Shown in pieces: positions 200-48,449 of a stretch of 64,000 nt of DNA. Each line of letters opens with the position of its first letter. The stretch's first letter is position 1. This DNA is from a bacterium. Its GTDB lineage: Bacteria; UBA8248. The DNA lies in NCBI GenBank assembly GCA_965218885.1, contig OZ244713.1, positions 2,104,638 to 2,168,637 on the forward strand, in the 5' to 3' direction. The notes beneath the pieces are model-generated. The model did no database searches and was not told the origin of the DNA. It worked only from the letters and a program-made list of their open reading frames with translations. The position numbers were made by a program, and so were the translations under genes.

Positions 200-1270
200 C
201 AAGGGTGAATTTCACTATCACGCCCACGACTTGACGGAAAATAACTCACGACCTAGATTCAGGTAGACCACCCGTTTTACGGGAATGTGCATTGTCTGCA
301 ATTCGCATTCCATCCTAAACGGAGGTCTCCCGTGACAATCATTGAATTACTCGAGATGTTCCCGGATGAACCTACTGCGCGAAAGTGGTTTGAAGAAATC
401 CGCTGGCCTGGCGGAGAGCGCTTCTGCCCTCTCTGCGGAAGCGTGAGAACCACGCACGTCCACAACGAAAAACCCCTGCCTTATCGGTGCCTCGACTGCC
501 GACAGTTTTTCAGCATTCGGTCAGAAACCCCGATGCACCGAAGCAAGGTCCCGCTCCACAAGTGGGCTGCCGCGATATACCTGATGTCCACGGCCGTCAA
601 GGGGATCTCGAGCATCCGGCTCCACCGGTATATCGGCGTCACCCAGCGGACCGCGTGGTTCATGTTGCACCGCATCCGTGAGGGTTGGCTCAAGGGTGAC
701 GATCTGATGAGCGGTCCGGTCGAATTGGACGAGAGCTATATCGGGGGCAAGGAACGGAACAAGCACGCGAACAAGAAGTTGCGTCCGGGCGGTGGCGGAG
801 CCGGAAAGGTCGTGCTCCTCTGTATGCGCGATCGCGGAACGGAAACCATCCGTTCGGAACCGACCAAGGTATACGGCGAATGGGGATCCGGTTTGGACGC
901 CATGCAGTTGCGCGGCTTCGTGCGGCGCAATGCCGAAGCTGGAGCAACGCTCTTTACCGACAACAACCGCTCATATCGCCGGTTGCGCGAGTACAAGCAT
1001 TCCTACGTGACGCACAGCCGCGGCGAGTACGTTCGCGGCGACACGCACGTCAACGGATGCGAGTCGTTCTTCGCACTGTTCAAGAGAGGGTTTTTGGGAC
1101 CTATCATCAGATGAGCGTCAAGCATCTGCACAGATATTTGAATGAATTTGTCGGCAGATCGAATTCGAGGAAAATGGACACTATTCACCAGATGAAGGCT
1201 CTTGCTGGCGGGTGCGAAGGACGGCGTTTGACTTGGAAACAACTCACGTCATAAGTGATCATAAATTTAT
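200..1270 (+). mobile_element. IS1595-family (ISXO2-like) insertion sequence carrying the transposase below. The ends are approximate and inverted repeats were not identified.
   Basis: It contains a recognisable IS1595 transposase. The GC content drops sharply immediately to the right. The stop codon of the adjacent minus-strand gene lies within ~13 nt of the transposase stop. Confidence 0.45.
287..1254 (+). pseudogene. IS1595-family transposase that is frameshifted; the two ORFs 287-1114 and 880-1254 join with a -1 shift around 1095-1110.
   Basis: The N-terminal region has a zinc-ribbon-like CPLCGS...CLDCRQ motif and the core reads ...ESYIGGKERNKH... The C-terminal GTYHQMSVKHLHRYLNEFVGRSN motif, typical of ISXO2-like transposases, is found in the other frame after the KRGF/GTYH junction. 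The shift lies at a T5/G3 run, gggtttttgggacc. Confidence 0.7.
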
Positions 1271-1670
1271 GATTTCAATCTGTCCCCTAGCCTTTCGATT
1301 AACTCATCGACGGATGTTTCGTTCAGATCTGATTGTTCCTCTAGATCAATTTCCCACAATGGCACATAAATTCCTGTAATCACTTCACGTTTCCTTGACT
1401 CAATGAGTTTTTGATTGTGAGTTATAATGGTTTCCATGATTTTTACGATTTGCTTGATCTCTCTATGGAAGCCTGCCAAATATATGAATCTAATGTCGTC
1501 TTGAGGGAAATTTTCCGTTGGCATTGGTTCAGTGTCCAGCATTTGGATAAGCCTAGCATCTCGTTCTTTTGGTTTTTGTGATGAAGCTAAAAGCCACCCC
1601 AGAATGTCCTGCTGGGCTTTCAGTCTTCCTTCTAATTCCGCGAATTTTTGACCAGATAGGCTCACCATCT
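1267..1670 (-). CDS. Hypothetical protein of ~134 aa in an AT-rich cassette. The longest ORF runs to 1803, but the likely start is MVSLSGQKF.
   Basis: It is an ORF in a low-GC region and co-oriented with the downstream-facing peptidase gene. I recognise no domain. Confidence 0.4.
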
Positions 1671-1931
1671 CGTATCCTCCGGTTTTGGGTTTTAACGCTG
1701 AGAGGTCGCCTCCCACTATGGGAGGCGACCTCTTTGGTTCGTTCGCAATGTTCGATGTTCTCTTGGTTCGACTCGTTCGTACTCCGTGCTGTTCTGGCCT
1801 CACGACTCATTCAGACAATAGCTTAACTCGCACTTTTAGGCTTGGTTGCTACACCCTTTCCGCCAGTAGAACTTGTTCCACGTTCCATTTTTTGATAGGG
1901 ATATACGAGCTTTTGTGGACGGTTTTTAATG

Positions 1932-2792
1932 TCAGATATCCTCTGCTTGTTGGTTTGTTGGCTGTTGGCCGACATGATCGGTCTCCATTGGGTTTAGTGA
2001 TGCGGGATAGTAATGCTTTCGCTTAATCCACTTAAATCCTTCATGCTTCGTAACTGTTGCAATGTCGGTTTCGCCTCCAACGATATTCGCTAGCGGCAAA
2101 AATGAAAAATACTTCTTTGTCAAGTCTACTAGAAAATCAGCTAGATTTATAGCATCTTGAACCGGCATTGCGGGATTCACCAAGGGAGTGTTCGATCTAG
2201 CAGCGTATTCCTCAATGATTGAATCAACTGTATTCTTAGGCAAATTATGTTTTTCTAAAGTCTCATATAAAATGTTTAGCTCAGTACCATAGATTAAACG
2301 CGATATCGCACTTTGCTGACCACCCCAAATTATGTCACTCATATCTGGACCCAGCATAAGCAACGGCTTTCTTAGTGCCCCGTCAAGAATAGAAATTTGC
2401 CATATTTCACCTTGGGCATCATCAGAGCCATAGCCTCCAATCCAAAAATTAAAATTAGAATTCCCTGGGGGAGGATTTAGTTCTTTGTATTTTTGCTCGA
2501 AAAATTTATGTGATTTTTCAGCAATTTCCTCAATGCTGTAATTAGAATTATCAAGGCTTTCTGTCAATTCTAACCTTAAATCCTTAGCCAAGTTGCTGAT
2601 GGACGCGGGACCGAAGTTCCCCATGCCCGCGGTCATTGCAACGACAGGAAGTTTTTTGTGCAGGTTGAATACCTTAATGCCGTATTCCCATATATTGGCG
2701 ACAGTTCCAGGCTGATCACTTAATAAGGTCGATGCGCTATCTGCTGCAAAAACGATGCAGTTATAGACTTTAACGCCAACACATACGGTCAT
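1932..2792 (-). CDS. Standalone HslV/20S-proteasome-like Ntn threonine peptidase (T1 family-like) with a ~100 aa C-terminal extension.
   Basis: The N-terminus MTVCVGVKVYNCIVFAADSAST places Thr immediately after the initiator Met. An Asp sits 16 residues later (as proteasome Asp17) and a Lys follows in GIKV (as Lys33). The GMGNFG Gly-rich segment matches the proteasome beta fold pattern. No HslU-like ATPase is adjacent. Confidence 0.5.
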   Translation of the reverse strand: MTVCVGVKVYNCIVFAADSASTLLSDQPGTVANIWEYGIKVFNLHKKLPVVAMTAGMGNFGPASISNLAKDLRLELTESLDNSNYSIEEIAEKSHKFFEQKYKELNPPPGNSNFNFWIGGYGSDDAQGEIWQISILDGALRKPLLMLGPDMSDIIWGGQQSAISRLIYGTELNILYETLEKHNLPKNTVDSIIEEYAARSNTPLVNPAMPVQDAINLADFLVDLTKKYFSFLPLANIVGGETDIATVTKHEGFKWIKRKHYYPASLNPMETDHVGQQPTNQQAEDI

Positions 2793-3210
2793 TATCGACT
2801 CCCGAATTCTGCGCTGATTTCATCAAGAAGGTTTTGTATGATGTTCGTGGGCGAGAAGCGCGAAAAATTTCTTTCTGTCTCCTATGGTTTCGAGTACACG
2901 GATCCTGCCACCTGCACAAAAAGAGTGTCAAGCTTACTTCTGGGTATTCTTGGAACATGCAAGATTGGATAAGCTTAACACCTACACCTTCCCGGCCCCA
3001 AAAGCCCCAATCGCTTGTGGATGCATGAAAACGCCTCCCACTTCCGAATAACCAGGGCCACAGAATCGGACATGAATGCTCCGTGTGTTCCTTTCCTGAT
3101 TGAAGGAACCAGTTCCGTCAACGATTAGCTCGGACCAGCGCAGGTCCTGAAATCTCGCGCCCGTATTGAGTTTGTAAATGCCCTTGAACGAAACGTCTAG
3201 ATCGTTTCAG

Positions 3211-3849
3211 CACACGTCATAGGTCAGGGGCGCGGCTATCGCCCTGACGAGCTTGAAGCGCATGCTGGCGTACTCGAGCATCGGACATGCGGGCTACGTG
3301 CTGATGGGCGTGGTGGCCACCATGAGCGTTGTGGACGGCAAGGTGACCTTCACATCGATAGGCATCAGCGCGGTGACTTTTTACCTTCTCGCCTACCTGT
3401 TCACGAACCTGGGAGCCTTCGGCATGTTGATTCTCGTGTGCCGGGAGGGCTACCGGGGAGACAACATCGAGGACTGGAGGGGAATCGGCCAAGCCCATCC
3501 CTGGGCGGGGATGGCCTTCGTGGTGTTCCTGCTATCGCTCGGCGGCATTCCGCCGACGGCCGGCTTCGTGGGCAAGCTCTACCTGTTCGCCGCGGCGGTG
3601 CAAAACGAGTATTACTGGCTCGCCGCTATCGGGCTCCTCATGAGCGCGGTTTCGATGTACTACTACGGGCGCATCATGATGGTGATGTTCATGGAGAACA
3701 GGGGAGAGAGCCAGGAGGTGATGAGTCTTTCGAGCGCGCCTTCTCTGTTTTTCGCGCTGGTGGTGCTGGTGGTGGCGACCCTGCTGCTGGGCATCTTCCC
3801 GGGCAGCTTCCTCGACGCGGCGAAGGGCACCGTCGCCGGGTTCATATAG
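3211..3849 (+). pseudogene. nuoN: 5'-truncated NADH-quinone oxidoreductase subunit N (NuoN/ND2 family) fragment. Only the C-terminal ~210 aa are present.
   Basis: ELKRMLAYSSIGHAGYVLMGV... followed by several TM helices is characteristic of the NuoN C-terminal half. The frame opens only at 3211, after a TAG. Upstream DNA is non-homologous AT-rich cassette DNA. Confidence 0.7.
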
Positions 3850-6768: not shown

Positions 6769-7332
6769 TCAATCCGTATTCGTGATTCCTTCTAATACAA
6801 GGTTTTTTCCGTTTATTTCGACAGTGCTCGTGAGTGGAACCGCCGTCTGAACCATTTGCTCGGCATAGCAGCCTTGCTTCGCCAATCGGATGATGTTCAG
6901 GATTTTCTCTTCCGCTTCGCTCGATTCCACCTTGAAATGCGTACGCACCCTTCGGCACCCTGAATTTACATCGCCCTTGAGGACGGAGCCTTTCAGAAAA
7001 TAATCGAATTCAACGCGGCAAGTGGCTTTCGCGAAGGTGGTTTTCGTCATATGGGCGTACCGCCCAAGCTGAGTCAACAGTCAGAATCCGACTCCCATGG
7101 CGATGTATGTGAGAGGCTGCGGATATCTGTCCTCTCCTCCGATGCGGGGTGGTTCGTCGCTAAAGACCTCAAAATGCCGGAAGCGTCCGATTTTGAGTTG
7201 TCCATCGTCCATCGTCTCGGTTTCTGCGAGCATGGTGATCTCATAACCGTCTTTTGGAAGTTCGGGTTTATCAATTGGTCTCTCGCCGGGCACGGTGCTC
7301 TCATGCCAGGGATAGTTTATGCTTTCCACCAT
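6769..7332 (-). CDS. OsmC/Ohr-family (peroxiredoxin-like) protein interrupted by a single in-frame TGA at 7081-7083. It is either a candidate selenoprotein with Sec in place of the first catalytic Cys, or a nonsense pseudogene.
   Basis: ORFs 7081-7332 and 6769-7077 lie in the same frame and are separated only by TGA: ...PLTYIAMGVGF-(TGA)-LLTQLGRYAHMTKTTFAKATCRVEF... The TGA falls where OsmC/YhfA-like proteins have their resolving/peroxidatic Cys (L..G.C..M motif). A second Cys (KATCRV) is retained. A GGGCG-GUA-CGCCC hairpin lies 16-30 nt downstream of the UGA. Confidence 0.5.
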
Positions 7333-7399
7333 ATTTGGTTGTCCTCCAGGGTTTGGACGGGAATGATTCTACTCTGAGAAATGATTGTTTATATGGGTA

Positions 7400-8149
7400 T
7401 TATTCCCATTTCAGCACACAGATGTAACCCTCTTGCGGAATGCTGACGAGCGGTTCCAAGTCTTCCTCTTTTTTGTGCATTTGGATGGTTTTCAAGTGTG
7501 CATACGCCTCCCAGAGCATGTGGCGAAACGTGTATTCCAGGTTGAAATGAAATAGTTCCGTATCCTCCGGGTCAATCCACACGCCTGTGCGATGGGCTTT
7601 GAGGGTGACGTTCTCGCGCCATTGGCGGACATTCTCGCCGGTTCCGGGCCGTATCATGCCCCGCGGCGCGCGCTCGGATATCTTTCTCCCGTCCCGGATG
7701 GATTCGGTCGTCTCCGCTCCCAGCACCTCCCAGGCGAGGGCGAACGAATCCCGCATGACGTCGATAAGGTCTTGAATTTGTGGGCAGTATTCGTCTTTCA
7801 TGATTCGCCCATCGAAGCGCTCGAACAACCCCTTATCGCGCGGAAGCTCATCAGTGAAGAGGATAGCTCCCCAGCGAATGAGCAGCCACCGGTAGGGCAG
7901 AGAGGCCACGTGGCTCACCTGATCCTGGATGGACCAGGAGCCCCAACTCTTCCCCTCTCTCGTTCTCCGCAATGTCCCCTCGGGGAGTCCTTCCGTTTCT
8001 TTTGCATATAATTCAACGACTTGCGGAATTTCGGGGAAAAGCGAGCGCGCTGAATTCTCTCGTTCCTGCATCTTCTTGATTCCTCCGGGCTGGTGTATGA
8101 TGCTCCGCAGTACTGGCCTGAATCGGGCCGGGGATCTCTCGGAAAACAC
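7400..8149 (-). CDS. DinB/YfiT-like (DinB_2 superfamily) putative metal-dependent hydrolase. This is the full-length copy.
   Basis: ORF of 249 aa. The SWSIQDQVSHVASLPYRWLL region resembles the DinB-family helix motif. A second partial copy lies at 11440-11775. Confidence 0.35.
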   Translation of the reverse strand: MFSERSPARFRPVLRSIIHQPGGIKKMQERENSARSLFPEIPQVVELYAKETEGLPEGTLRRTREGKSWGSWSIQDQVSHVASLPYRWLLIRWGAILFTDELPRDKGLFERFDGRIMKDEYCPQIQDLIDVMRDSFALAWEVLGAETTESIRDGRKISERAPRGMIRPGTGENVRQWRENVTLKAHRTGVWIDPEDTELFHFNLEYTFRHMLWEAYAHLKTIQMHKKEEDLEPLVSIPQEGYICVLKWE

Positions 8150-8226
8150 CTCGTTAATTTTCAGAAAAACCCCGTCAATTTATCGAAAAACCCCGTGAAT
8201 TTATCGATATTTTCAGAAATTCCTTA
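8150..8226. promoter_or_regulatory. Tandem 20-bp direct repeat (aaaaaccccgtSaatttatcga x2 plus a partial third copy) immediately upstream of the DinB-like gene. It is a putative operator/promoter element and is duplicated at ~11776-11852.
   Basis: It reads ...tttcagaaaaaccccgtcaatttatcgaaaaaccccgtgaatttatcgatattttcag... in both copies. Confidence 0.4.
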
Positions 8227-9050
8227 TTCTCGAACGCGCCGATTCGCTTCGCAATCATACACGCGCGCGCCTTGAGTCCGATGACGGCAAATGCGGGGAA
8301 ATTAGCCCCTCCGCCGCATCCCGGTGGGTCCGTGTCGGACGATTGCGCAGCCATCTTCCAAAGTCTGATTCGCAACACCTTGCTTACGGTTACGTTCCTG
8401 CGCCCCACAACGTTCACTCAGGAACCACCTCCGATGTGGCGTGCCCCATGAGTTCATTCGAGAAATCACAGAACCTGAGATAGAAATTATATTCGAGAAT
8501 GGATATAAAGCGCAGCCTCCATGGACGCCCTCTTAAGCCCGAGGAAGTTCGGCGCTTCACGGATATGGCGTGGTGGATTGCGAGGATATTGATGTCAATG
8601 GGGAATGATACCGAGGATACACCTCAGGTTTTTTTTGTAGGGGCGGTTCGTCTCTAACCGGGGAAAGATTGGCTGCCTATCTAAACAACCACCTCCCCTG
8701 ATATCATCGCCATCCCGTTCAGATTGTCGTCATTCGCGATTTCGACCACGAACCGGTTCGCCCCTCGTAACCCGTCAGCCTGTCCTTGACGTGGGTGGTG
8801 TAATCGGGCCGGGCCTGCTCGCCGTCGTTGATGACGTCGACTCCCGCCTCCACCTGTTTTCCACGTCGTCTTCTATCGCGCGCGCCACGGCGGCATCGAG
8901 ATCACCGGAATCAGCACCTCCTTCCTCCTGGGCCGGCAACAAATCGACCACTTACTGGGGGCGCGGCAGGCTTCCCGTGTGGGTCGTGGGTATTCTCTCG
9001 GTGCTGCGCTTCATCGTTCGATGCTCCCCTTTCTTCTCAAAAACCGGCCC
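8180..9050 (-). pseudogene. Degenerate cobalamin-independent methionine synthase (MetE C-terminal domain)-like gene remnant in multiple frames. The duplicated copy lies at ~11810-12690.
   Basis: Frame fragments resemble MetE-family motifs: LPAQEEGGADSGDLDVAVARAIEDDVEKRVEAGVDVINDGEQARPD...THVKDRLTGYEG and, further 3', FAVIGLKARA. The reading frame is broken repeatedly. Confidence 0.3.
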
Positions 9051-9752
9051 TTAGCGTTTGCCCCATTTTTTCTTCTCCACCGTCTCTTCTTCTATCTCAT
9101 AGAAGCCCTCGAGGCCGATCAAGTCCTCTACCCCCTGGCGGGCGGCCATGAACTCCTCATGCGTCATGCCCGTGTAATCGCCCGTCTTGCGCACTTCCTG
9201 TAAGGCTTTTTTCATGAAATGGAAACTGACGGTGAGATACAAAATGGCGCGCGATGCCGCCGCCGCCGCCCCGAAAGAGCCGCACGTGCCCGTGGCCCGC
9301 CATCCCTTCAGGCGGTGCGCGGCCATGTTGACCGCCATGCCCACCCGCGCCGCCGTCTCATAACCCGCCGATACCGCTTCTAGAAACGTTTTTCCGTCCG
9401 TTCCCCCAAGTTCACAGGCGGCCAGAGCCGCCGGGATTACGGCCACGCCGGGGTGAAGCTTGGATTTACGGTGCAGATCGTCAAAGATCAGGACGTGGGC
9501 AAGGATGCCGTTCGTAAGAGCAGCGGTGGCCGGGTCGGCCCCGAAATCCCGGCCGATGATCGTACAGGGCCCGTTTCCCGAAGCCGCTTCGGCGGCGCGC
9601 AGGTGAACGCCCGCCTCCTCGGTTCCCAAAGCCCCCAGCGCGCAGCCCAGGTGATCAAGCAGGCAGAACTTCAGAAAATCGGGTATCTCCTTGGGCATAT
9701 CCTCGAGGCGCAGCCCCGACATGAATCCGGCAAGTTGTTTCGAGCGATTCAT
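9051..9752 (-). pseudogene. Chimeric ORF in which the N-terminal ~170 aa of MmgE/PrpD (copy of 14513-15010) is fused in frame to the C-terminal ~65 aa of the PrpB-like gene (copy of 12674-12882). It is the product of an internal deletion in a duplicated segment.
   Basis: The N-terminus [16 protein letters not shown]...GTCGSFGAAAAASRA is ~90% identical to 13628-15010. The C-terminus ILYLTVSFHFMKKALQEVRKTGDYTGMTHEEF...KKKWGKR is identical to the end of 12674-13585. Confidence 0.7.
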
Positions 9753-9779
9753 CGTATCCCTTGGGTGCGATGACGTCTC

Positions 9780-10152
9780 GGCGCAGTGCGCGCACGCGAA
9801 CGGGGCCGACGGGACACTCAAGGCGCACTACAGCAACTGGCGCTGGGTGGTGGCGTCCTGCCGTGATGGTTTCGTGCATACGGCGCCTGTGGGTTCGTTT
9901 CGGGCGAATGGATTCGGATTGCACGATATGCATGGAAATGTATGGGAATGGGTAGTGGATTGTTGGAATGTAAATTATAAAGGCGGCCGGCGCGCCGGCC
10001 ACGGCCCCGGAAAAATAGCATTTGGAGAAGATTGCATTGATGTTTTAACATGGAAACGTTACAATACGGATAAATACTATTGCGATAAAGAAAATGTCCC
10101 ACCTGCATGCTGTACGAGAAAGGTTTCCGGGCGTGCGAACGCCCGTACATAG
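9780..10152 (+). pseudogene. FGE-sulfatase (formylglycine-generating enzyme/SUMF1-like) domain. Only the C-terminal fragment is present.
   Basis: [22 protein letters not shown] is the hallmark FGE-domain motif. The ORF's 5' portion overlaps the antisense strand of the chimeric prpD remnant and has no FGE N-terminal region. Confidence 0.55.
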
Positions 10153-10176
10153 GGTGTGATGCCATAGGGAGGAGCC

Positions 10177-11385
10177 ATGATGCGCATATACTCTTCAAAC
10201 CGGGTCTTGCTCACCTTCTTATGCGCCGCCCTCGCGTTTGTTGCGGCCTCGTTGTGGGGCATGGATTCAGCGCTTGCAGAGGTGCGCAACCCCAAGGGCG
10301 TAGCGGTGATCGTGGGCAACAAGGACTATGAGCACCGCGACATCCCCGACGTCTCTTTCGCCCACCGGGACGCGGACGCCTTTAAGCGCTACGCCGTGGA
10401 CGTGCTGGGTTTCGATCTCAAGAACATCATCGACCTTCGAGACGCTAGGCGCAGAAGGATGTTTGACGCGCTGGGCAGCGAGCGTTCGCCACAGGGGGAG
10501 TTGTGGAGCTACCTCGATCCCGACGGTGGTTCGGACGTCGTGGTGTTCTACTCGGGCCACGGTGTTCCGGGGATGAAGGACAAGCGCGGCTACCTGCTGC
10601 CCGTGGACGGGAGTCCGCACGCGGCGGAAGAAGACGGTTATCCGATCGACCTCCTCTACAAGAACCTGGGGAGTCTCAAGGAAGCGCGTTCGGTGGTGGT
10701 GTATGTGGACGCGTGTTTTTCGGGGAGCAGCGCTGGAGGGAACCTGACGCGTTCGGCGAGTCCGGTCTATGTGCGCGCGGCGCTGCCGAAGGAACTATCG
10801 AAGAAAGTGACGGCGCTGACGGCGGCGAGCGGCAAGCAGTTGGCCTCGTGGGATGATCGTGCGCGTCACGGGTTGTTCACGCATCATCTTCTGGATGCGC
10901 TCTACGGCAAGGGAGATGACGACAAGGACGGCAAGGTGACGGCCAAAGAGGCGAAGAGGTATCTGGACAAGCGGATGACGCGGGCGGCGCGGCGTCAATA
11001 CCGGCGGGTGCAGAATGCGTCGCTGATGGGCTTGAAAGATGCCGTGTTGTCGGTGGCTCGATTCCCGGAGCGCCAGTCTCTGGGCGGCGGGGCGAAGGCC
11101 GTAAAGAAAAAGACAGAAAAAGTCACAACGCTGCTGAAGTCGCCCGTCGTGGACAATGAGCCTGCCCTCGACAGGGAGAAGAAGGTACTGGTGCAGCGCG
11201 GCCTTGGTTCCCTGAAATTCGACCCGGGTCCGGCCGACGGGGCGTTCGGACCGAAGACGCGCGAAGCCATCCGTGGGTGGCAGAAGGCGAAGGGCTACGA
11301 AGAGACGGGCCGCCTCACACAAGAGCAGGCGGATGCGCTGGCCGCTGCAGGAAAATCCGGGAGGAGCGCTCCCTCGGGCGGGTGA
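10177..11385 (+). CDS. Secreted caspase-like (peptidase C14) domain protein with a C-terminal peptidoglycan-binding (PG_binding_1-like) domain.
   Basis: It has an N-terminal signal peptide (LLTFLCAALAFVAASLWG). The caspase core has the His site YSGHG and the Cys site YVDACFSG. The C-terminus GLGSLKFDPGPADGAFGPKTREAIRGWQKAKGYEETGRLT matches the PG-binding repeat. Confidence 0.7.
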   Translation: MMRIYSSNRVLLTFLCAALAFVAASLWGMDSALAEVRNPKGVAVIVGNKDYEHRDIPDVSFAHRDADAFKRYAVDVLGFDLKNIIDLRDARRRRMFDALGSERSPQGELWSYLDPDGGSDVVVFYSGHGVPGMKDKRGYLLPVDGSPHAAEEDGYPIDLLYKNLGSLKEARSVVVYVDACFSGSSAGGNLTRSASPVYVRAALPKELSKKVTALTAASGKQLASWDDRARHGLFTHHLLDALYGKGDDDKDGKVTAKEAKRYLDKRMTRAARRQYRRVQNASLMGLKDAVLSVARFPERQSLGGGAKAVKKKTEKVTTLLKSPVVDNEPALDREKKVLVQRGLGSLKFDPGPADGAFGPKTREAIRGWQKAKGYEETGRLTQEQADALAAAGKSGRSAPSGG

Positions 11386-11439
11386 GGCGGAGCGTGAGTT
11401 TGGGCTACGGTGAAGGAGAGTCAGTCTCCCTCGGACCTC

Positions 11440-11775
11440 GAAGCGCTCGAACAACCCCTTATCGCGCGGAAGTTCATCAGTGAAGAGGATAGCTCCCCAG
11501 CGAATGAGCAGCCACCGGTAGGGCAGAGAGGCCACGTGGCTCACCTGATCCTGGATGGACCAGGAGCCCCAACTCTTCTCCTCTCTCGTTCTCCGCAATG
11601 TCTCCTCGGGGAGATTCTTCGTTTCTTTTGCATATAATTCAACGACTTGCGGGATTTCGGGGAAAAGCGAGCGCGCTGAATTCTCTCGTTCCTGCATCGT
11701 CTGGATTCCTCCGGGCTGGTGTATGATGCTCCGCAGTACTGGCCTGAATCGGGCCGGGGATCTCTCGGAAAACAC
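11440..11775 (-). pseudogene. Duplicated 5' portion (~113 codons) of the DinB-like gene. It is truncated, and the ORF runs on into unrelated antisense sequence of the caspase gene.
   Basis: The first 113 aa are near-identical to 7400-8149, and identity stops at the duplication boundary (~11440). Confidence 0.7.
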
Positions 11776-12673
11776 CTCGTTAATTTTCAGAAAAACCCCG
11801 TCAATTTATCGAAAAACCCCGTGAATTTATCGATATTTTCAGAAATTCCTTATTCTCGAACGCGGCGATGCGCTTCGCAATCATACACGCGCGCGCCTGG
11901 AGTCCGATGACGGCAAATGCGGGAAAATTAGCCCCTCCGCCGCATCCCGGCGGGTCCGTGCCGGATCATTGCGCAGCCATCTTCCAAAGTCTGATTCGCA
12001 ACACCTTGCTTACGGTTACGTTCCTGCGCCCCATAACGTTCACTCAGGAACCACCTCCGATGTGGCGCGCCCCATGAGTTCATTCGAGAAATCACAGAAC
12101 CTGAGATAGAAATTATATTCGAGAATGGATATAAAGCGCAGCCTCCATGGACGCCCTCTTAAGCCCGAGGAAGTTCGGCGCTTCACGGATATGGCATGTC
12201 GAATTGCGAGGATATTGATGTCAATGGGAAATGATACCGAGGATACACCTCAGGTTTTTTTAGGGGCGAATCGTCTCTAACCGGGGAAAGATTGGCTGTC
12301 TATCTAAACAACCACCTCCCCTGATATCATCGCCATCCCGTTCAGATTGTCGTCATTCGCGAGTTCGACCACGAACCGGTTCGCCCCTCGTAACCCGTCA
12401 GCCTGTCCTTGACGTGGGTGGTGCAATCGGGCCGGGCCTGCTCGCCGTCGTTAATGACGTCGACTCCCGCCTCCACCCGTTTCTCCACGTCGTCTTCTAT
12501 CGCGCGCGCCACGGCGACATCGAGATCGCCGGAATCGGCGCCGCCTTCCTCCTGGGCCGGCAACAAATCGACCACTTACTGCGGGCGCGGCAGGCTTTCC
12601 GTGTGGGTCGTGAGATTCTCTCCGTGCTGCGCTTCATGGTTTGACGCCCTTCTTTCTTCTCAAAAACCGGCCC

Positions 12674-13585
12674 TTAGCGTTTGCCCCATTTTTTCTTCTC
12701 CACCGTCTCTTCCTCGATCTCGTAGAAGCCCTCGAGGCCGATCAAATCCTCTACCCCTTGGCGGGCGGCCATGAACTCCTCATGCGTCATGCCCGTGTAA
12801 TCGCCCGTCTTGCGCACTTCCTGTAAGGCCTTTTTCATGAAATGGAAACTGACGGTGAGATACAAAATGGCGTCGATGCAGGCGACGTAGCCCATCTCGG
12901 CCATCTGGGTTTCCGAGTAGAGCGGCCTTCCGTCCCTGTTGCCCCGGCTCTGGACGTACACCAGGGGAATCTTGGACTTCTCGGGGGCGGCGAGGGCTTC
13001 CTTGTGGTTCCGGGGAAAGACGAGGCCCATATCCGCGCCCACGTCCGCGGCCATGTTCACGCGCTTGACCGCCTCGCCGATGCCCCGGAAGCGCGCCGTA
13101 TCCGAACGCGCGATGATGACGAAATCCTTGTCCGTCTCGTCGCGCTGGCGACACGCCATCTTGATCTTGTCGACGAATTCCCTGGCCGGAATCGCGTGCG
13201 CGACGTATTTATGATAGTGCGCGCGCTTGGGGTAGAACTGATCCTCGATGTGAATCCCGGCTATGCCCGCGCGAATGAACTCCCGCACGGAGCGCATGGT
13301 GTGCATCGGCTCGCCGAAGCCCGCCCCGCCGTCTGCGAGGGTGGGTATTTTCACCGCGTTCGCGACGTCTCCGGCCACGTCCACCTGCTCGCGCATCGTC
13401 ACCATCGGCTCGGTGATGCAGCGCGAACCACCCGTCACGAAACCGCCCGTATAGGTCGCCTTAAAGCCCAGGCTCTCCGCCAGCCTGCCCCCGATGGGAT
13501 CGTAGGCGACGGGCATGAAGATGAAATTTCCCCTTTTCAGCAGGGCGCGGAACTTGGTGGTGTTGCGGCGAATGGCCATTTGCAT
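12674..13585 (-). CDS. Isocitrate lyase/PEP mutase-family enzyme (PrpB-like 2-methylisocitrate lyase or carboxyvinyl-carboxyphosphonate phosphorylmutase-like).
   Basis: MQMAIRRNTTKFRALLKRGNFIFMPVAYDPIGGRLAESLGFKATYTGGF... together with the IARSDT/EDQ motifs typical of ICL/PEPM-fold enzymes. Confidence 0.65.
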   Translation of the reverse strand: MQMAIRRNTTKFRALLKRGNFIFMPVAYDPIGGRLAESLGFKATYTGGFVTGGSRCITEPMVTMREQVDVAGDVANAVKIPTLADGGAGFGEPMHTMRSVREFIRAGIAGIHIEDQFYPKRAHYHKYVAHAIPAREFVDKIKMACRQRDETDKDFVIIARSDTARFRGIGEAVKRVNMAADVGADMGLVFPRNHKEALAAPEKSKIPLVYVQSRGNRDGRPLYSETQMAEMGYVACIDAILYLTVSFHFMKKALQEVRKTGDYTGMTHEEFMAARQGVEDLIGLEGFYEIEEETVEKKKWGKR

Positions 13586-13627
13586 CTCCTGTACGGCGAA
13601 ATATGAACCTCTCGGATTTTCCTGGTT

Positions 13628-15010
13628 TTATACTTTTTGAGTTTTCTCGAGGGCAACGAGTTCCTTGAGCTGCGAGAGATTGGGCTGCTCCTCGACACTC
13701 ATCACGAAATCGATGACGGCGTCCTGACTCCCCCGTACAAGCACGGGTGCCGTAAGATCACGGAATTTCTCGACGACCGCCTCCTCGGCGGGCCTGTTTT
13801 CCGGATCGCCCCGGCAGTATTCGACGCGCTCGTGGATGTGCTCGCCATTTTTCAGGTGAAACGTCACGTCGCACGGCTTCTTCTCGTGGTAGATGGCCGT
13901 GAGTTCCGGGTCGGCCTCCACCTGCGTGGCTTTGGCGAATCGCACCAGTTCCGGGTCGTATAAGGATTCGCCCTCGAGATCGGACGGCGAAACCTTGCCC
14001 CGCCTCAGCACAACCGCCATGGCGTATCCCATGTGAAAGATCATCTTGGCGGGCGGACCCGGCTCAAAATCCCAGCCGCACTGGATTTTCGTAATCTCAC
14101 CGGCCCGAATCGAGGTGCGCTCGACGTCCTCGAGCCTCAGGCCATGCTTTTGGCGGGCAAAGAGCGCGGCGTCGATGCCCGTCTGGCTGCTGTGGCAGGT
14201 GGGGTAGAGTTTGATGGAGGTGTCCATGAGCCAATACCGATCGCCCAATCCGTCGGTGAGAATCCCAGGGTTAGGGTCCCTGGTCGTCATGGAGAAAAAG
14301 CCCCCATCGACCGCTTCCAGGGGATCGGATGAGCCTCTGAAGCCTCCCCCGGCCAGAAGCGCCGAGACCACTCCGTTTCTGGCGGCCGTTCCCGCCGCCA
14401 GGTAAAGCTCCATCCCTGAGCCTTGCGTGAAGGCGAAATTACCCGAAGCCTGCCCCGCCGCCGCTGCGATGGCGTGGTGCAGGGTTTCGGACGAGTGATT
14501 CATGGCGCGCGATGCGGCGACGGCGGCCCCGAAAGAGCCGCACGTGCCCGTGGCCCGCCATCCCTTCAGGCGATGCTCGGCCATGTTGACCGCCATGCCT
14601 AAGCGCGCCGCCGTTTCATAACCCGCCGATATCGCTTCTAGAAACGTTTTTCCGTCCGCTCCCCCGAGTTCGCAGGCGGCCAGAGCCGCCGGGATCACGG
14701 CCACGCCGGGGTGAAGCTTGGACTTGCGATGCAGATCGTCAAAGATCAGGAGGTGGGAAAGGATGCCGTTCGTGAGAGCGGCGGTGGCCGGGTCGGCCCC
14801 GAAATCCCGGCCGATGATCATACAGGGCCCGTTTCCCGAAGCCGCTTCGGCGGCGCGCAGGTGAACGCCCGCCTCCTCGGTTCCCAAAGCCCCCAATGCG
14901 CAGCCTACGTGATCCAGCAGGCAGAACTTCAGAAAATCGGGTATCTCCCTGGGCGTATCCGCCAGGCGCAGCCCCGACATGAATCCGGCAAGTTGTTTCG
15001 AGCGATTCAT
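13628..15010 (-). CDS. MmgE/PrpD-family protein (2-methylcitrate dehydratase-like).
   Basis: 460 aa with the typical MmgE/PrpD N-domain and C-domain arrangement. It lies upstream of the PrpB-like gene. Confidence 0.7.
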   Translation of the reverse strand: MNRSKQLAGFMSGLRLADTPREIPDFLKFCLLDHVGCALGALGTEEAGVHLRAAEAASGNGPCMIIGRDFGADPATAALTNGILSHLLIFDDLHRKSKLHPGVAVIPAALAACELGGADGKTFLEAISAGYETAARLGMAVNMAEHRLKGWRATGTCGSFGAAVAASRAMNHSSETLHHAIAAAAGQASGNFAFTQGSGMELYLAAGTAARNGVVSALLAGGGFRGSSDPLEAVDGGFFSMTTRDPNPGILTDGLGDRYWLMDTSIKLYPTCHSSQTGIDAALFARQKHGLRLEDVERTSIRAGEITKIQCGWDFEPGPPAKMIFHMGYAMAVVLRRGKVSPSDLEGESLYDPELVRFAKATQVEADPELTAIYHEKKPCDVTFHLKNGEHIHERVEYCRGDPENRPAEEAVVEKFRDLTAPVLVRGSQDAVIDFVMSVEEQPNLSQLKELVALEKTQKV

Positions 15011-15093
15011 CGCATCCCTTGTGAGCGATGAAAAAGCGCAGCCGCGCCCGCACCCGAGCGGACGCGGCGCGCCGTTTCATCCGGCAAGTGAAA

Positions 15094-16137
15094 TTAGTTG
15101 CCGGTCAGTATCTTGAGCGAGTCCTTGGTCCATTTGTCTCGCATCTTGTCCATCTCGTTCGGGTCCCACCAGTGGTATTTGAGGTCGGAGAGCTTCACGC
15201 CCTCCACGCTGGTGAAATCCTTGCGCAGAGAAAACTTGCCCTTGTCGGAAACCACATTCTGGCCCTCGAGGCTCGAGAGCCATTCGATCAGCACTTTCGC
15301 GCCGGCGGGGTTGGGGCCGCCCTTGGTGATCGCCATCGGGGCGACGAGCAGTGCGCCGCCTTCTTTGGGGAACACCTCTTTGATGGGTGCGTTCTTGCCG
15401 CCCGGGTAGGGGCCGTCGCGGCGAACGAGCATGGAGAGATTCACGCCGAAGTGGCGCTCGCCCGATTTCACCTTGTTGTTCGTGGTGCCGTGGCTGCGCA
15501 CCATCATGGCGTTGTTGTCGCGCGTCTTGATAAACCAGTCGCGCCCGAAGAGCTTGTACATCGTGAACACGAAGTAATAGTGTCCGCCGCCGATCTTCGG
15601 ATCGCCGAAGCTGATCTTGCCCTTCCACTTGGGCTTGTGGAAGTCGAGCCAGCTGTTGGGGATGTCGCCGCCCTTGACGAGTTCGGGGTTGTAGGAAATG
15701 TATTGCAGCCAGGAGGTGTGATAGAAGTAGCCGCAATCCTTCGCCACGGCCCAGTCACGATAGTCCTTGTAGTTCGGGCTGCAATAACGGGTGAGCTGGT
15801 TTTTTCTGTTGAAGCTCAGGAACATTCCCGGATCGGCGGTGGAAATGGCGTCCATGCGCACCTTTCCGGCCCTCAACTCCTGCTTGTAGAGATTGGCGAT
15901 TTTGCCGGACTGGCTCCGGATCATCTTCGCCTTGATGCCGTACTTGGCGAATTTCTTGTTGAACGCCTTGTTCAGTTTTCGCTGGGCGGGCTTGAAGATG
16001 ATGTTGTACACGATGATCTGCCCGCCTTTGGTGCCGGCCGCCATTTTGAGCGTTTCCTTGTCGGCGCCGTGCGCGGCGCCCGCCGCCAGGCCCACCGACA
16101 GCACCAGGCTAATGATGAGGGTTGTCCACTTCTTCAT
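15094..16137 (-). CDS. ABC transporter periplasmic substrate-binding protein (Fe3+/polyamine/phosphonate family, bacterial extracellular SBP family 1).
   Basis: It has a signal peptide and an SBP fold. It is co-oriented with the ATPase and permease. Confidence 0.7.
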   Translation of the reverse strand: MKKWTTLIISLVLSVGLAAGAAHGADKETLKMAAGTKGGQIIVYNIIFKPAQRKLNKAFNKKFAKYGIKAKMIRSQSGKIANLYKQELRAGKVRMDAISTADPGMFLSFNRKNQLTRYCSPNYKDYRDWAVAKDCGYFYHTSWLQYISYNPELVKGGDIPNSWLDFHKPKWKGKISFGDPKIGGGHYYFVFTMYKLFGRDWFIKTRDNNAMMVRSHGTTNNKVKSGERHFGVNLSMLVRRDGPYPGGKNAPIKEVFPKEGGALLVAPMAITKGGPNPAGAKVLIEWLSSLEGQNVVSDKGKFSLRKDFTSVEGVKLSDLKYHWWDPNEMDKMRDKWTKDSLKILTGN

Positions 16138-17265: not shown

Positions 17266-18996
17266 CTATCGGTAGACGGGGGTCACATCCACCTTGAAAA
17301 CCCACTTGAACACGGAAATGACGACGAACATGATCGCCGTCAGAAGCAATGCGCCCGCGCACATGATATTCAACTCCCCGTCCGTCCACTGCTCGAAGAT
17401 CAAAACGGGCAGAACGCGCGTCTCGTGCGTAGTCAAAAGAACCGCCGTGGATATTTCGCGCAGGAAAATGATGAACAGCAAAATCCAGGTGGAATAAATG
17501 CCCGGACGCAAGAGGGGGAAGATGATCCGCCGGAAAGTGAGGAACCAGCTACCCCCGTGAACCCGGCTGCTCTCCTCGAGCTCTCCGTGCACCTGCACCA
17601 CGTTCGCCCCCAGGGCGCGGACGCCGTAGGGCATGAACAGCGTGAGGTACGCGACGACGAGAATCCAGACGGTCGCCCAAATCGGCCACTGGATATACGC
17701 CCATATCATCCCCAGGCCCATGACGATTCCGGGAATTCCCACCGGCATGACGCTCACCTGCTCAAGAATGCCGCGGCCGGGCGCCTTGCTCTTGTGGATG
17801 ATGTAGGCGATGACGGCCGTCATGAGCACGCTGATGGTCGCCCCGCCCGTGGAGAGGTACATCGAGCGGATGAAGGAGTCGAGCAAATCGGGGTTCGTGA
17901 AAAAGACCTCCCAGTTCTCCATCGTCCACAGCCCGAACTTGGGCGTGGCGTAGGGCTGCATGCTGACCTTGATGAGCACCAGCCCGGGCAGGATGACGGC
18001 GAGCAGCGCGTAGAGCGCCGTGAACAAATAGGCGAAGGGCGTCAGGCGGCCGAGAGAGTAGAGCTTGAGGCGAAACCCACGTCCGCTCACCAGGGCGTAG
18101 GAGCCTTTTCTGAGAATCCACCGCTGCAAGAGGATGCAAATGGCGGTGATGGCCATCAGCGTAAGGGCGGCGACGGTCGCCTCCCCGTACAGGGGCGGGG
18201 CGAAAACCGATTTTGCGAAAATATCCGTCGCCAGCACCACGATCCGCGCCGGAAAACCCAAAATGGCCGCCACGCCGAAGATCCCCATCGTAATGACGAA
18301 CACGAGCGTCATGCCCGAGAGGATGGCGGGAAGAATGACCGGAAACGTCACCCGCGTCAGGGTGCGGAACAAGCCCGCTCCCGACATGAACGAGGCCTCC
18401 TCATACGTCGTGTCCACCGAGCGGAGCGCCGCCGAGGTGAACAGAAACATATAAGGCGCCATGTATATGCCCGAGACCCAGATGATCCCCCAGACGGAGT
18501 ACACGTTGATGGGCAGTCCCGTCCAGAGTTTGACCATCCCGTTGGTGGGGTTGCCCAGAAGAATCCAGGCGAGCGCGCCGACGAAGGTGCTGGTGAAAAA
18601 CGGAAGAATGGCGGAAAGCTCCACCCAGCGCTTCCCGCGCATGTCGGTCTTCACGACCAGCCAGGCCAGGGGCGAGCCGATGATCGTCGCCAGGAAGACC
18701 ACGCCGAAACCGACCAGCAGGGTTCTGCCCACCGTGCGCCAGTAGCCCGGATTGCCGAAAACGACGCGGAAGTGCTCGAGCGTCCACACGCCTCCCTCCC
18801 CGGGAGGTTCGGACTGAAACGCGCCGTAGAACAGGTTGAGAACGGGAGCGAGGACGAACCACAGAACCAGCACCGTCATCACAACGACCGTGACGACCTC
18901 GAACGGCGTGACGCCCGCCGCGCGCAGCCTTCTGAGCGGCGCGTGGAAATAGCGCTCGAGCGCCCCTCCCGGGTTCTGAACAACTGTTTCGGCCAT
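17266..18996 (-). CDS. ABC transporter permease with two fused permease domains (FbpB/iron(III)-type).
   Basis: 576 aa and about 12 TM segments, with two EAA-like loops. Confidence 0.8.
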   Translation of the reverse strand: MAETVVQNPGGALERYFHAPLRRLRAAGVTPFEVVTVVVMTVLVLWFVLAPVLNLFYGAFQSEPPGEGGVWTLEHFRVVFGNPGYWRTVGRTLLVGFGVVFLATIIGSPLAWLVVKTDMRGKRWVELSAILPFFTSTFVGALAWILLGNPTNGMVKLWTGLPINVYSVWGIIWVSGIYMAPYMFLFTSAALRSVDTTYEEASFMSGAGLFRTLTRVTFPVILPAILSGMTLVFVITMGIFGVAAILGFPARIVVLATDIFAKSVFAPPLYGEATVAALTLMAITAICILLQRWILRKGSYALVSGRGFRLKLYSLGRLTPFAYLFTALYALLAVILPGLVLIKVSMQPYATPKFGLWTMENWEVFFTNPDLLDSFIRSMYLSTGGATISVLMTAVIAYIIHKSKAPGRGILEQVSVMPVGIPGIVMGLGMIWAYIQWPIWATVWILVVAYLTLFMPYGVRALGANVVQVHGELEESSRVHGGSWFLTFRRIIFPLLRPGIYSTWILLFIIFLREISTAVLLTTHETRVLPVLIFEQWTDGELNIMCAGALLLTAIMFVVISVFKWVFKVDVTPVYR

Positions 18997-41254: not shown

Positions 41255-41373
41255 TTTCGGGATTTTTTAATTCACTCACCGTTGCCGGCTCAGACGCCAG
41301 GAAAAATCTGTCCTAGAAATTGTATGTCACGCTCAGCGCGATGAAGCTGTCTAGCGGGTGAGACGAGCGCGCA

Positions 41374-47159: not shown

Positions 47160-47977
47160 CAGCGCACCCGTTTCAGCCCGGTCCGGGTGAAGTCGCGGTC
47201 TTTGAGGTTGGTGCGGAACTTGTAGTCCTTCCAGCGCAGCACGGTGCTTTTGCCCGTCAGGTGGTTCACCATCTTCATTTCGCTGGCCTGCCAGTAGCGA
47301 TCCAGATACTTCTTGTATTTCCCCAGCGTGAGCGTCTTTAAGTGTGAGTTCTTCCGGTCGTAGTACTGCACCTTCCAGGCGCGAAGATCGCCCTTATCCT
47401 GCCAGACGATTTGGCGCCGGTAGCCCGACCTCTTGCTCACAGGGAAGCGCTCGACGACCGTGCAGGTCAGTTTGCCGCAAGCCTCATCGCGCAGGTAGCG
47501 GTATGTGTATTTCTCCACCTCCTGGGTGCCCATGTCCTCATAAGCGAATTCGCTTCCCATGAATGAGCCGGATTGGTTCGACGAACTGATGCGCTTGACC
47601 CGTTTGAGAGCGGGCAGGTAGAGCCATTGATCGTCGTTCTTCTTCTTGTGTGTGTGGACGAGCAGCGCGGTGCCTTTGACGTCGCGCGGGCGATCGAAGA
47701 CGAACAGGCTCTTGTTGCCTCCTCCGTCCGTCTCGAGAACCTTCACGCGGAGCCGGCGCCGGCTCTCCTGCCCGTGCTTGTTGCGCAGCACCATGTTCTG
47801 CTCGGCCGTGAAATTCCCAAAACCTTTCGCTTTCTCGCGGGTCTCGCTAGCGATCTTCAGCCCTTTTTCTTCGGGCGTCGCGCCCTCGGCACTCGGCGGG
47901 GCAAGCGGATGAACCAGAACGCAAGCGCAGATCGCGAGAAGCAGGAGAGTCGAGCGGGCGAGACGAGCGTGCATCAT
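47159..47977 (-). CDS. Outer-membrane lipoprotein-sorting (LolA-like) family protein, commonly partnered with COG1033 RND exporters.
   Basis: It has a signal peptide. The family assignment rests on overall similarity and context, so confidence is moderate. Confidence 0.45.
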   Translation of the reverse strand: MMHARLARSTLLLLAICACVLVHPLAPPSAEGATPEEKGLKIASETREKAKGFGNFTAEQNMVLRNKHGQESRRRLRVKVLETDGGGNKSLFVFDRPRDVKGTALLVHTHKKKNDDQWLYLPALKRVKRISSSNQSGSFMGSEFAYEDMGTQEVEKYTYRYLRDEACGKLTCTVVERFPVSKRSGYRRQIVWQDKGDLRAWKVQYYDRKNSHLKTLTLGKYKKYLDRYWQASEMKMVNHLTGKSTVLRWKDYKFRTNLKDRDFTRTGLKRVR

Positions 47978-48180
47978 GGTTCCCTCCTGTCGATGGCCAT
48001 CAGCAGAGTCGAGAAAAGCAGAAAATCGGCCAGGAGCGCGATAACAATCGTTATCCCGAGCAGGAGGCCGAGCGCCCTGTCATTTGCCAATCCCGATGCG
48101 GCGAAAGCCATGAAACCCAGGGCAAAAACAGCGGTTGTCATACATAACGCATGGCCTGCGGTGCGAAAGACTGACCGCAC
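47974..48180 (-). pseudogene. MMPL exporter C-terminal fragment (last ~68 aa).
   Basis: MRSVFRTAGHALCMTTAVFALGFMAFAASG...LLADFLLFSTLLMAIDRREP aligns with the C-termini of both full MMPL copies. Confidence 0.75.
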
Positions 48181-48449
48181 GGCCTCGGGCGACGAAAACC
48201 CCTCTTACCGGGCATTCTTTCGAAAAGCCGTTAAAATACCCTCTTAAATGCTTGCCTGCAATTATTTGTTTCAGGGCTCCTTACAACTTCTTTCCATTTC
48301 CTTGACATCTTATCAAATTCGTTCATCAGCGCAATATGCATTTCAGCCGAGCCCGGACGGGTTTTCCGGCTTCCTCGTTCGCCCCAAATTGCCCGGCAGG
48401 ATTCACGGGCAGTCCAGTACCCTTTGCTCCAAGGGTAAGATGGGCATCA

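Follow-up and report, generated by a model that had tools for sequence, protein, structure and literature searches.

The stretch of DNA analysed here (hereafter, the window) spans 64,000 nucleotides of a bacterial contig (OZ244713.1 of the assembly GCA_965218885.1, positions 2,104,638 to 2,168,637 of the forward strand; GTDB lineage UBA8248). It carries an open reading frame (ORF) for a caspase-like protease, preceded by a short piece of a domain of the FGE-sulfatase family (FGE, formylglycine-generating enzyme; Table 1). As judged by comparison with related loci, this locus is a decayed tandem pair of genes of an already known protein-family kind.

All three families that a preliminary description of the locus had named, Peptidase_C14, FGE-sulfatase and PG_binding_1, are recovered by Pfam profile search, far above chance, at the positions in Table 1. 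The Peptidase_C14 match (PF00656) covers residues 40–260 of the protease, with an E-value of 2.6e-13 (50.6 bits; cut-off, 21.4), and the C-terminus is, as described, of the PG_binding_1 type, aligned over profile positions 7–57 of 57 (E 1.6e-11, 44.6 bits against a cut-off of 23). The matches of the latter domain among PDB sequences are the peptidoglycan-binding (PG-binding) domains of SltB3, an L,D-transpeptidase, CtpB and SleB. In the AlphaFold2 (AF2) model of the protein, which has a pLDDT of 79.7 overall, this region forms three helices with pLDDT >90. Foldseek comparison of the model retrieves the MALT1 paracaspase, the fungal metacaspase 7qp0 and animal caspases, all with a probability of 1.0, E-values of 3e-12 to 3e-8 and a target-normalised TM-score of ~0.7 against isolated caspase domains. 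Among PDB sequences, the C14 part searched as a single sequence gave only weak matches to the legumain family (E 0.04–0.6), and a profile search of the same sequences yielded no match at E ≤ 0.01.

The His/Cys dyad, which the preliminary description had taken to be intact, is conserved in the alignment of 47 relatives: His128 is invariant and Cys180 is retained in at least 90% of the sequences. In the AF2 model, the two residues are located at the C-terminal ends of the central strands 119–131 and 170–181. The motif [FY][YF]SGHG is present in 119 of the 120 best database matches and the strict D[AST]CFSG in 113 of the 120. The 47-sequence alignment includes five of the motif-negative matches; the Cys persists in three of them (EACFSG, DACFTG) and is replaced by Gly in the other two (P0016 and P0031; DAGFSG), which are 379 aa long, consist of C14 and PG_binding_1 only and are probably pseudo-proteases. 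The ASWD...HGLFTHHL block that is conserved in the family is kept in the window protein as well. The position two residues before the catalytic Cys is occupied by Gln in caspases and by Asp in the Arg/Lys-specific metacaspases, paracaspases and orthocaspases. Because Asp178 lies at this position ahead of Cys180, unlike the Gln of caspases, the window protease is predicted to prefer Arg or Lys. The Asp-x-Cys arrangement and Arg/Lys-specific orthocaspases are also covered in PMC5756287.

The N-terminus resembles a signal peptide, as proposed in the preliminary description. By heuristic inspection, it comprises an n-region, MMRIYSSNR, with two Arg, an h-region, V10–W27, which is the sole hydrophobic segment of the protein, and the cleavage motif ALA34/EV (cleavage at the slash), and the same inspection of the N-terminus found neither a lipobox nor a Tat motif. 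In close relatives, the h-region is shorter and the cleavage motif is AQA/EV. Given that the PG-binding domain needs an extracytoplasmic site, that the relatives all come from diderm phyla and that a neighbouring ABC-transporter solute-binding protein in the window has a non-lipoprotein signal peptide, the periplasm is the expected compartment.

The start codon of the protease is likelier to be the second ATG, at 10180, than the one at 10177; a Shine-Dalgarno sequence, GGGAGGAG, lies at 10167–10174, 5 nt ahead of the ATG at 10180. This sequence closes an AT-rich leader of ~195 nt that opens with a 16-nt palindrome, GGCCGGCGCGCCGGCC (9985–10000), and is conserved in the region upstream of the gene for P0012 at locus L003, where the preceding gene is unrelated. 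The degree of conservation of the leader equals that of the coding sequence in the same comparison. A regulatory RNA in the leader was considered and rejected, as the segment 9978–10185 folds no better than its shuffles (z = 0.21) and no Rfam family was found within 7000–13000 except for a chance-level match to SECIS_3. A sigma-70-like site at 10037–10065 was likewise rejected, being within the chance expectation and not conserved in L003.

The FGE piece is a truncated remnant, as the preliminary description held. The ORF that contains it (9691–10152, plus strand) matches the FGE-sulfatase profile with E 6.5e-14 over positions 158–198 of 255 only, the family hidden Markov model (HMM) covers only its positions 150–194, and tblastn with full-length relatives places the similarity at 9793–9999 (E 5e-18 to 3e-14). 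Thus defined, the fragment is missing ~150 profile positions at the N-terminal end and ~55 at the C-terminal end; the missing sequence takes in what, in relatives, is the variable region of a diversity-generating retroelement (DGR). Outside ~9774–9978, the ORF is made up of a 5' part antisense to a PrpD fragment and a 3' part that is the leader of the protease gene. The best NCBIfam match of the fragment is PvdO (E 1.5e-17), with 63.6 bits, far below the equivalog cut-off of 500. True FGEs carry a catalytic cysteine pair after the RGGS motif. In the full-length relatives, the domain reads RVLRGGSW...LRSA.R....GFRVARTL, with no Cys in that stretch, and its closest solved structure is the periplasmic PvdO (PDB 5hha; E 9e-15). 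Neither the incomplete domain in the window nor that of the relatives, which has no catalytic cysteines, is a true FGE of the SUMF1 type. Because the FGE domain of the family is PvdO-like, lacks the catalytic cysteines and is, in relatives with a DGR, a hypervariable C-type-lectin (CLec) domain, no role in sulfatase maturation is implied.

The family alignment has a fixed order: signal peptide, C14, linker, PG_binding_1, linker and FGE-type CLec domain. Because the FGE domain is thus C-terminal, the scrap that precedes the protease gene is what remains of the tail of an upstream tandem paralogue that has been deleted, and is neither a part of the C14 gene nor its partner. The related loci bear the same arrangement in less eroded states. 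In L001 and L082, a whole upstream paralogue with C14, PG_binding_1 and FGE lies directly before the orthologous genes of 409 and 393 aa, respectively, and is frameshifted at different places in the two genomes; in L002, a 236-aa FGE ORF is kept at this position. The remnant in the window is the shortest of the four. That FGE and C14 domains are often fused, as had been said, agrees both with the published count, 33 of the 671 prokaryotic metacaspases carrying FGE-sulfatase (Asplund-Samuelsson et al. 2012, PMC3501461), and with the close relatives, most of which have both.

The downstream gene is itself truncated at the 3' end. Database search retrieved, ahead of everything else, identical or near-identical proteins of 393–409 aa (P0001–P0006), followed by proteins of 650–700 aa that are 79–83% identical and combine Peptidase_C14, PG_binding_1 and FGE-sulfatase. 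The window protein ends directly after PG_binding_1, at the point where the linker to the FGE domain starts in the relatives. In the same frame past the stops, the window retains the linker relic given in Table 1, and L001, L002 and L082, in which the gene is truncated in the same way, go on as EAYLKAYPEGTYA; in relatives, the linker motif continues as EAYLKAYPEG. A motif of this form, Y..YL..[FY]P.G, follows PG_binding_1 in 18 of the 120 family members, in some as the linker ahead of FGE and in others near the C-terminus. Because all four genomes carry both stops, the gene was shortened before the four lineages split, and, given its nearest relatives, its ancestor likely had an FGE domain. 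Therefore, the C14 protein is intact, as the preliminary description put it, with respect to its open frame and its dyad, but not with respect to its length: it ends after PG_binding_1 with two stops and a linker relic behind it, and its relatives are longer. An out-of-frame EAEREFGLR after the stop was considered as a relic of the FGE motif SEAEWEY; it has no tblastn support and the in-frame linker relic fits better. A blastn search for the source of the 3' tail, extended to more distant loci, matched only close relatives.

The placement of the locus inside a rearranged region, also noted in the preliminary description, is borne out by the diverged repeat copies on both sides and the microhomologies at the junctions. 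A unique segment of 1.66 kb (~9774–11437) is flanked by the two repeat copies, which align in two blocks, 7805–9249 with 11431–12872 (94–96% identity) and 9244–9773 with 14502–15031 (92%). The deletion inside copy A has produced a chimeric ORF that matches the Pfam profile MmgE_PrpD_N over positions 1–162 of 244 only and has C-terminal residues identical to the end of the ORF at 12674–13585. The left junction was defined by a three-way comparison of the window, the copy B of the window and L001/L002. Both the left and the right junctions are window-specific, and because these carry microhomologies of 7–8 nt, illegitimate recombination is indicated; the junction between the FGE remnant and the leader of the protease gene (~9978) is common to all four genomes and hence older. 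Each of the related genomes has a different deletion variant of copy A, which points to decay of a redundant duplicate and not to an artefact of assembly.

Table 1. Features of the caspase-like protease locus and its flanks (coordinates in the window; aa, amino acids)
Feature	Position	Strand	Basis or remark
Caspase-like protease ORF	10177-11385	+	402 aa; C14 + PG_binding_1
Predicted Sec signal peptide, aa 1-34	10177-10278	+	hydropathy, -3/-1 rule
Peptidase_C14 (caspase-haemoglobinase fold) domain, aa 40-300	10294-11076	+	Pfam, family conservation, AF2 and Foldseek
Predicted catalytic His128 codon	10558-10560	+	motif YSGHG
Predicted catalytic Cys180 codon	10714-10716	+	motif VDACFSG
PG_binding_1 domain, aa 338-388	11188-11340	+	Pfam PF01471
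Stop codon (11383-11385), second in-frame stop and linker relic ...VKESQSPSDLEA	11383-11437	+	read-through translations of window, L001, L002 and L082
Conserved AT-rich 5' leader of the protease gene (~195 nt)	9979-10176	+	~85% identity to L003
FGE-sulfatase/C-type-lectin fragment, ~65 aa	9774-9978	+	Pfam, tblastn, family HMM, related loci
Repeat copy A	7805-9773	.	92-96% identity; internal deletion of the counterpart of 12873-14501
Repeat copy B	11431-12872	.	begins with the 5' part of the 249-aa ORF (minus strand, to 11775)
Chimeric pseudogene: N-part of MmgE/PrpD and last ~64 residues of a PEP_mutase-family gene	9051-9821	-	arose through the deletion in copy A
Left junction, 7-nt microhomology GCGATGA	9767-9773	.	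common to the PrpD-upstream sequence and the FGE gene of relatives
Right junction, 8-nt microhomology TCGAAGCG	11438-11445	.	3' flank of the protease gene and interior of the 249-aa ORF
249-aa ORF, intact copy	7400-8149	-	no Pfam or NCBIfam match
249-aa ORF, 5'-only copy	11431-11775	-	fused to unrelated sequence, giving a spurious 326-aa ORF (10795-11775)

The family to which the decayed pair belongs is diverse in domain content. In a survey of 78 species-representative loci, with the ORFs grouped by exact domain order, there were 23 ORFs with C14, PG_binding_1 and FGE, 23 with C14 and FGE, 13 with C14 and PG_binding_1, and 45 with C14 only, with rarer orders in smaller groups. Tandem arrays of family genes are common in other genomes. 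The relatives come from metagenome-assembled genomes (MAGs) of Binatia, Immundisolibacterales, Proteobacteria and Nitrospirota, and also from Thermodesulfobacteriota.

The most informative of these loci for the fate of the lost domain is L083, which encodes a protein 80% identical to that of the window (P0009). It contains, in this order, a C14-PG_binding_1-FGE gene, bAvd, an RVT_1 reverse transcriptase (RT), an SLT-like gene, three unknown genes, two more C14-PG_binding_1-FGE genes and one C14-only gene. An AAC-rich template repeat of 129 nt lies at the end of the RT gene (8904–9032) and matches each of the three FGE domains over its last ~126 nt, P0009 being one of the three proteins; the mismatches fall at template adenines in 21 of 25, 18 of 22 and 18 of 22 cases. 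The element as a whole occupies L083 7242–9032, and the variable regions include 15689–15814 and 17733–17859. By these features, L083 carries a complete DGR with three targets. In three genes of L003, including that for P0008, the corresponding regions differ from the L083 template mostly at adenines, Avd homologues adjoin family genes in at least eight further loci, and full RTs do so in two more. On this evidence, the FGE domain of the family is the CLec variable domain of DGR targets. Within the 64-kb window, neither an RT nor an Avd was found by tblastn and jackhmmer with the L083 proteins as queries, nor was there any sequence resembling a template or a variable region. The window ORF is not a DGR target either: it has no CLec domain, and the fragment upstream ends before the position of the variable region.

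The full-length relatives also share a conserved neighbourhood (L083 5168–19114, L085 705–15427, L003 902–16533) that is not present in the window. It includes an SLT-like transglycosylase, three proteins (~511, ~185 and ~455 aa), of which the ~455-aa one has a transmembrane helix in mid-protein, a Peptidase_S8, which in L085 is fused to OmpA, and paralogous proteins of ~330–366 aa. Individual neighbour families occur each in up to 17–19 of the 78 loci and in several phyla according to blastp clustering, and in fewer according to tblastn with the L003 proteins. The uncharacterised neighbours have no match in Pfam, NCBIfam, PADLOC or PDB sequences. For the 511-aa neighbour (u511), the AF2 model is all-helical (pLDDT 79) and has no PDB fold match better than E ~1.

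The closest known systems are the orthocaspases, or bacterial metacaspases (MEROPS C14), such as MaOC1 and MaOC4 of Microcystis, which share with the window protein the p20-type C14 domain with a His-Cys dyad and, with the window family, the Asp two residues before the Cys in Arg/Lys-specific members, the further domains on the C-terminal side of the protease and the multi-copy families with inactive variants (PMC5756287). MaOC4 itself has a C-terminal FGE-sulfatase domain (PMC5756287). Unlike these proteins, that of the window is predicted to be exported, contains PG_binding_1 and lacks an FGE domain of its own, and the inactive variants of its family have Gly in place of the Cys, whereas those of cyanobacteria have Tyr or Ser. 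Combinations of a metacaspase with FGE-sulfatase and with a peptidoglycan-binding domain, as seen here, have been described, and N-terminal helices of metacaspases have been read as likely signal peptides (PMC3501461). However, the same work treats the FGE domain as possibly formylglycine-generating, whereas in the window family it is PvdO-like, lacks the catalytic cysteines and is, in relatives, variable through a DGR.

A second precedent is provided by the DGR variable proteins of cyanobacteria, in which an orthocaspase domain is N-terminal and CLec C-terminal (Vallota-Eastman et al. 2020, PMC7517822). The full-length relatives are alike in having an N-terminal protease and a CLec with a 3' variable region, and their loci are alike in having bAvd, RT and an AAC-rich template alongside, with several paralogous targets per locus. 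The window copy differs in having neither CLec nor variable region nor DGR, so that it would be a former or derived member and not a target. The window relatives differ, too, in being exported and PG-binding (the word 'peptidoglycan' is absent from the text of PMC7517822) and in coming from Binatia, Immundisolibacterales, Proteobacteria and Nitrospirota MAGs. PvdO, a periplasmic protein of pyoverdine maturation with the FGE fold, is the closest solved relative of the family FGE domain, but the window holds only ~65 residues of this domain and no pyoverdine context. MALT1, the fungal metacaspase and the animal caspases have the caspase-haemoglobinase fold in common with the window protein, at 13–19% identity; it differs from them in the lack of death, Ig and CARD domains and in its predicted extracytoplasmic location. 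In the literature searched, an exported peptidoglycan-binding version of the orthocaspase-DGR combination did not turn up, nor did anything on a caspase with PG_binding_1 or on a DGR with Peptidase_C14 or FGE-sulfatase.

The best explanation of the locus as a whole, and one that is likely to be correct, is that of a decayed pair with a surviving, periplasmic, peptidoglycan-tethered and Arg/Lys-directed orthocaspase that is devoid of a ligand-binding domain. The upstream paralogue has been deleted down to a CLec fragment of 65 residues, and the downstream gene has kept the signal peptide, C14 and PG_binding_1 and lost everything after PG_binding_1. Under this scenario, the protein, translated from the ATG at 10180 or 10177, would be exported through Sec and cleaved after Ala34 or, alternatively, remain anchored in the membrane by the long h-region. 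PG_binding_1 would tether it to the periplasmic sacculus of a diderm cell, where it would act as a His128/Cys180 cysteine endopeptidase that, to judge by its sequence, cuts after Arg or Lys. In the relatives, CLec would be the ligand-binding module, the last ~42 residues of which are rewritten by the DGR, as seen for L083, and this module presumably sets the recognition or the response of the protease. Lacking both the CLec module and a nearby DGR, the window copy would be an orphan, either a constitutive cell-wall-associated protease or a gene on its way to loss.

Two accounts of the protease, as a maintained gene and as a relic, have to be weighed against the same data. The ORF could be a non-functional relic, caught in a hot spot of rearrangement and so far free of disabling mutations, an explanation that is rather unlikely, although the C-terminal part has been lost, with two in-frame stops ahead of the linker relic, the upstream partner has been destroyed, the gene is detached from the gene cluster and DGR of its relatives, and inactive Cys to Gly members do exist in the family. 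Several further observations weigh against a maintained, exported protease that has lost its CLec. In the comparison of the window with L002, the ratio of non-synonymous to synonymous substitution rates (dN/dS) over the whole ORF is 0.70, from 7 synonymous and 15 non-synonymous changes only, and constraint on the ORF may have been relaxed in recent time. The last 10–17 residues vary among the four genomes through frameshifts or deletions. The synonymous divergence (dS) is uneven, 0.23 in C14 and 0.02 in PG_binding_1, and in L082 (9090–10271) residues 174–261 form a block of substitutions of the upstream paralogue type (P0019-like), which suggests gene conversion between the tandem paralogues; such recombination blurs the reading of dN/dS. 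Moreover, some relatives of 506 aa carry a short Y..YL..P.G tail, which could have been the tail of the window ancestor instead of CLec, the 18-residue h-region could be a signal anchor given that the call of a signal peptide is heuristic, and hhalign of the family alignment with human caspase-3 aligned the first beta-strand alone and did not map the dyad. On the other side, residues 1–392 are open, with no frameshift or stop, in all four genomes (the window, L001, L002 and L082), which are ~0.16–0.25 apart in dS. For the C14 domain, dN/dS is 0.06 between the window and L001 (39 synonymous and 9 non-synonymous changes) and 0.07 between L001 and L002; these are the two most informative of the six pairwise comparisons (range 0.06–0.56), and their values are as low as those of the neighbouring housekeeping genes (0.03–0.4 among the neighbouring genes). 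In addition, the dyad, Asp178 and the ASWD...HGLFTHHL block are kept, the combination of C14 and PG_binding_1 with no FGE recurs in the 13 ORFs of other genomes, and the gene has a good Shine-Dalgarno sequence and a conserved leader. On balance, the protease gene looks maintained, with some doubt.

A wider reading, which is unlikely as it stands, is that the window ORF derives from an envelope system not yet described and has survived without its sensor; in that system, exported, peptidoglycan-tethered orthocaspases with a DGR-hypervariable lectin domain would serve as periplasmic 'antigen-sensing proteases'. In about one quarter of the sampled loci, such genes are accompanied by those for an SLT-like transglycosylase, for an S8 subtilase and for three to four unknowns (u511, u185, u455, u366). 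It is very unlikely that the protein is a secreted effector acting on a host or on competing bacteria, with PG_binding_1 directed at foreign walls; an 'exported effector' was one possibility raised in the preliminary description. The signal peptide and the PG-binding domain would suit such a role, and the names of the MAGs of relatives (APA_bin_69, RHO3_bin_20) hint at host association, which is a guess from the names alone. However, neither flank contains, within 10 kb, genes for a secretion system, immunity or toxin delivery, a Sec signal by itself takes a protein no further than the periplasm in a diderm cell, and PG_binding_1, a domain typical of enzymes of the own sacculus (SltB3, L,D-transpeptidase, CtpB), argues for retention in the envelope of the producer. 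Even less probable is a role as caspase-like effector in a conflict system (anti-phage or abortive infection), akin to the CHAT/caspase effectors and with DGR-diversified sensors. The relatives are DGR targets, FGE-type CLec targets of DGRs have been reported in putative conflict systems, and a pairing of DGR-diversified CLec sensors and peptidase effectors has been put forward as a system of this kind (PMC10907252). The window protein itself matches the PADLOC 'caspase' model weakly (E 3e-5, 21 bits), with no partner genes, and the NCBIfam model of the EACC1-associated caspase (caspase_w_EACC1, NF047832) with 73.6 bits, but the latter score falls well short of the cut-off of 140. The flanks consist of metabolic genes and transporters, with no NTPase, gasdermin, TIR, EAD or other gene of defence nearby; the protein is predicted to be extracytoplasmic and PG-bound, not cytoplasmic; the conserved neighbours of the relatives lack PADLOC matches, and the FGE fragment has no usable one; and the window copy has no sensor domain. 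Finally, an assembly artefact, i.e. a chimeric join of two strains, is hardly credible. The repeat copies are only 92–96% identical, which is close to the divergence between related genomes, and the source appears to be a metagenome-assembled chromosome, but three independent related assemblies contain the same gene pair and neighbourhood, with a common FGE/leader junction, stops and 3' flank, and differ from each other in the deletions of copy A. Furthermore, a 100% identical protein is encoded on two further contigs (P0002 and P0003), and the window-specific junctions have clean microhomologies.

For the window, the consequence is little beyond a corrected annotation: the FGE piece is debris of a neighbouring gene, and the 'intact' protease is truncated. 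In addition, the locus is an example of a small hot spot in which sequence has been duplicated, deleted through microhomology and altered by gene conversion. Should the window copy still be active, a protease module can be kept and used alone after the loss of the sensor. A natural variant with no binding domain, such as this one, would be a ready control for the role of the variable domain in targeting or activation. The widespread fusion of a caspase with FGE-sulfatase was once taken to couple proteolysis with the formation of formylglycine; in this family at least, a better reading is an exported, wall-tied protease with a lectin-type binding domain open to hypermutation by a retroelement. 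The more interesting material lies outside the window, in the DGR link and the conserved uncharacterised neighbour genes of the relatives.

Several minor observations pertain to the repeats. The 249-aa ORF is conserved in L001 and L002 with dN/dS of 0.34–0.40; the label 'DinB-like' considered for its intact copy was dropped, as no Pfam or NCBIfam match was found. Both repeat copies also contain short fragments that resemble Meth_synt_2 (8719–8951 and 12342–12575, minus strand). In each copy, a 21-nt unit, GAAAAACCCCGTCAATTTATC, forms an array of 3.1 repeats (8142–8207 and 11768–11833) immediately upstream of where the 249-aa ORF begins. In L001, the left edge of the insertion that contains the pair of caspase genes coincides with the end of the GAAAAACCCCGTCAATTTATC array, and an inverted 35-nt copy is located at L001 3170–3204.

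Elsewhere in the window, an IS1595-family transposase gene (287–1114) is apparently frameshifted, with a continuation at 880–1254. Beside it, a low-GC island (~1000–3000, 42–46% GC) contains two ORFs with no family match, and both the transposase gene and the island adjoin a 5'-truncated nuoN-like gene (3253–3849); at the corresponding place, two Proton_antipo_M genes are present in full length in L002. A further set of diverged direct repeats (41371–41908 and 47971–48978, 70–83% identity), unrelated to the first, is probably a pair of paralogous genes.

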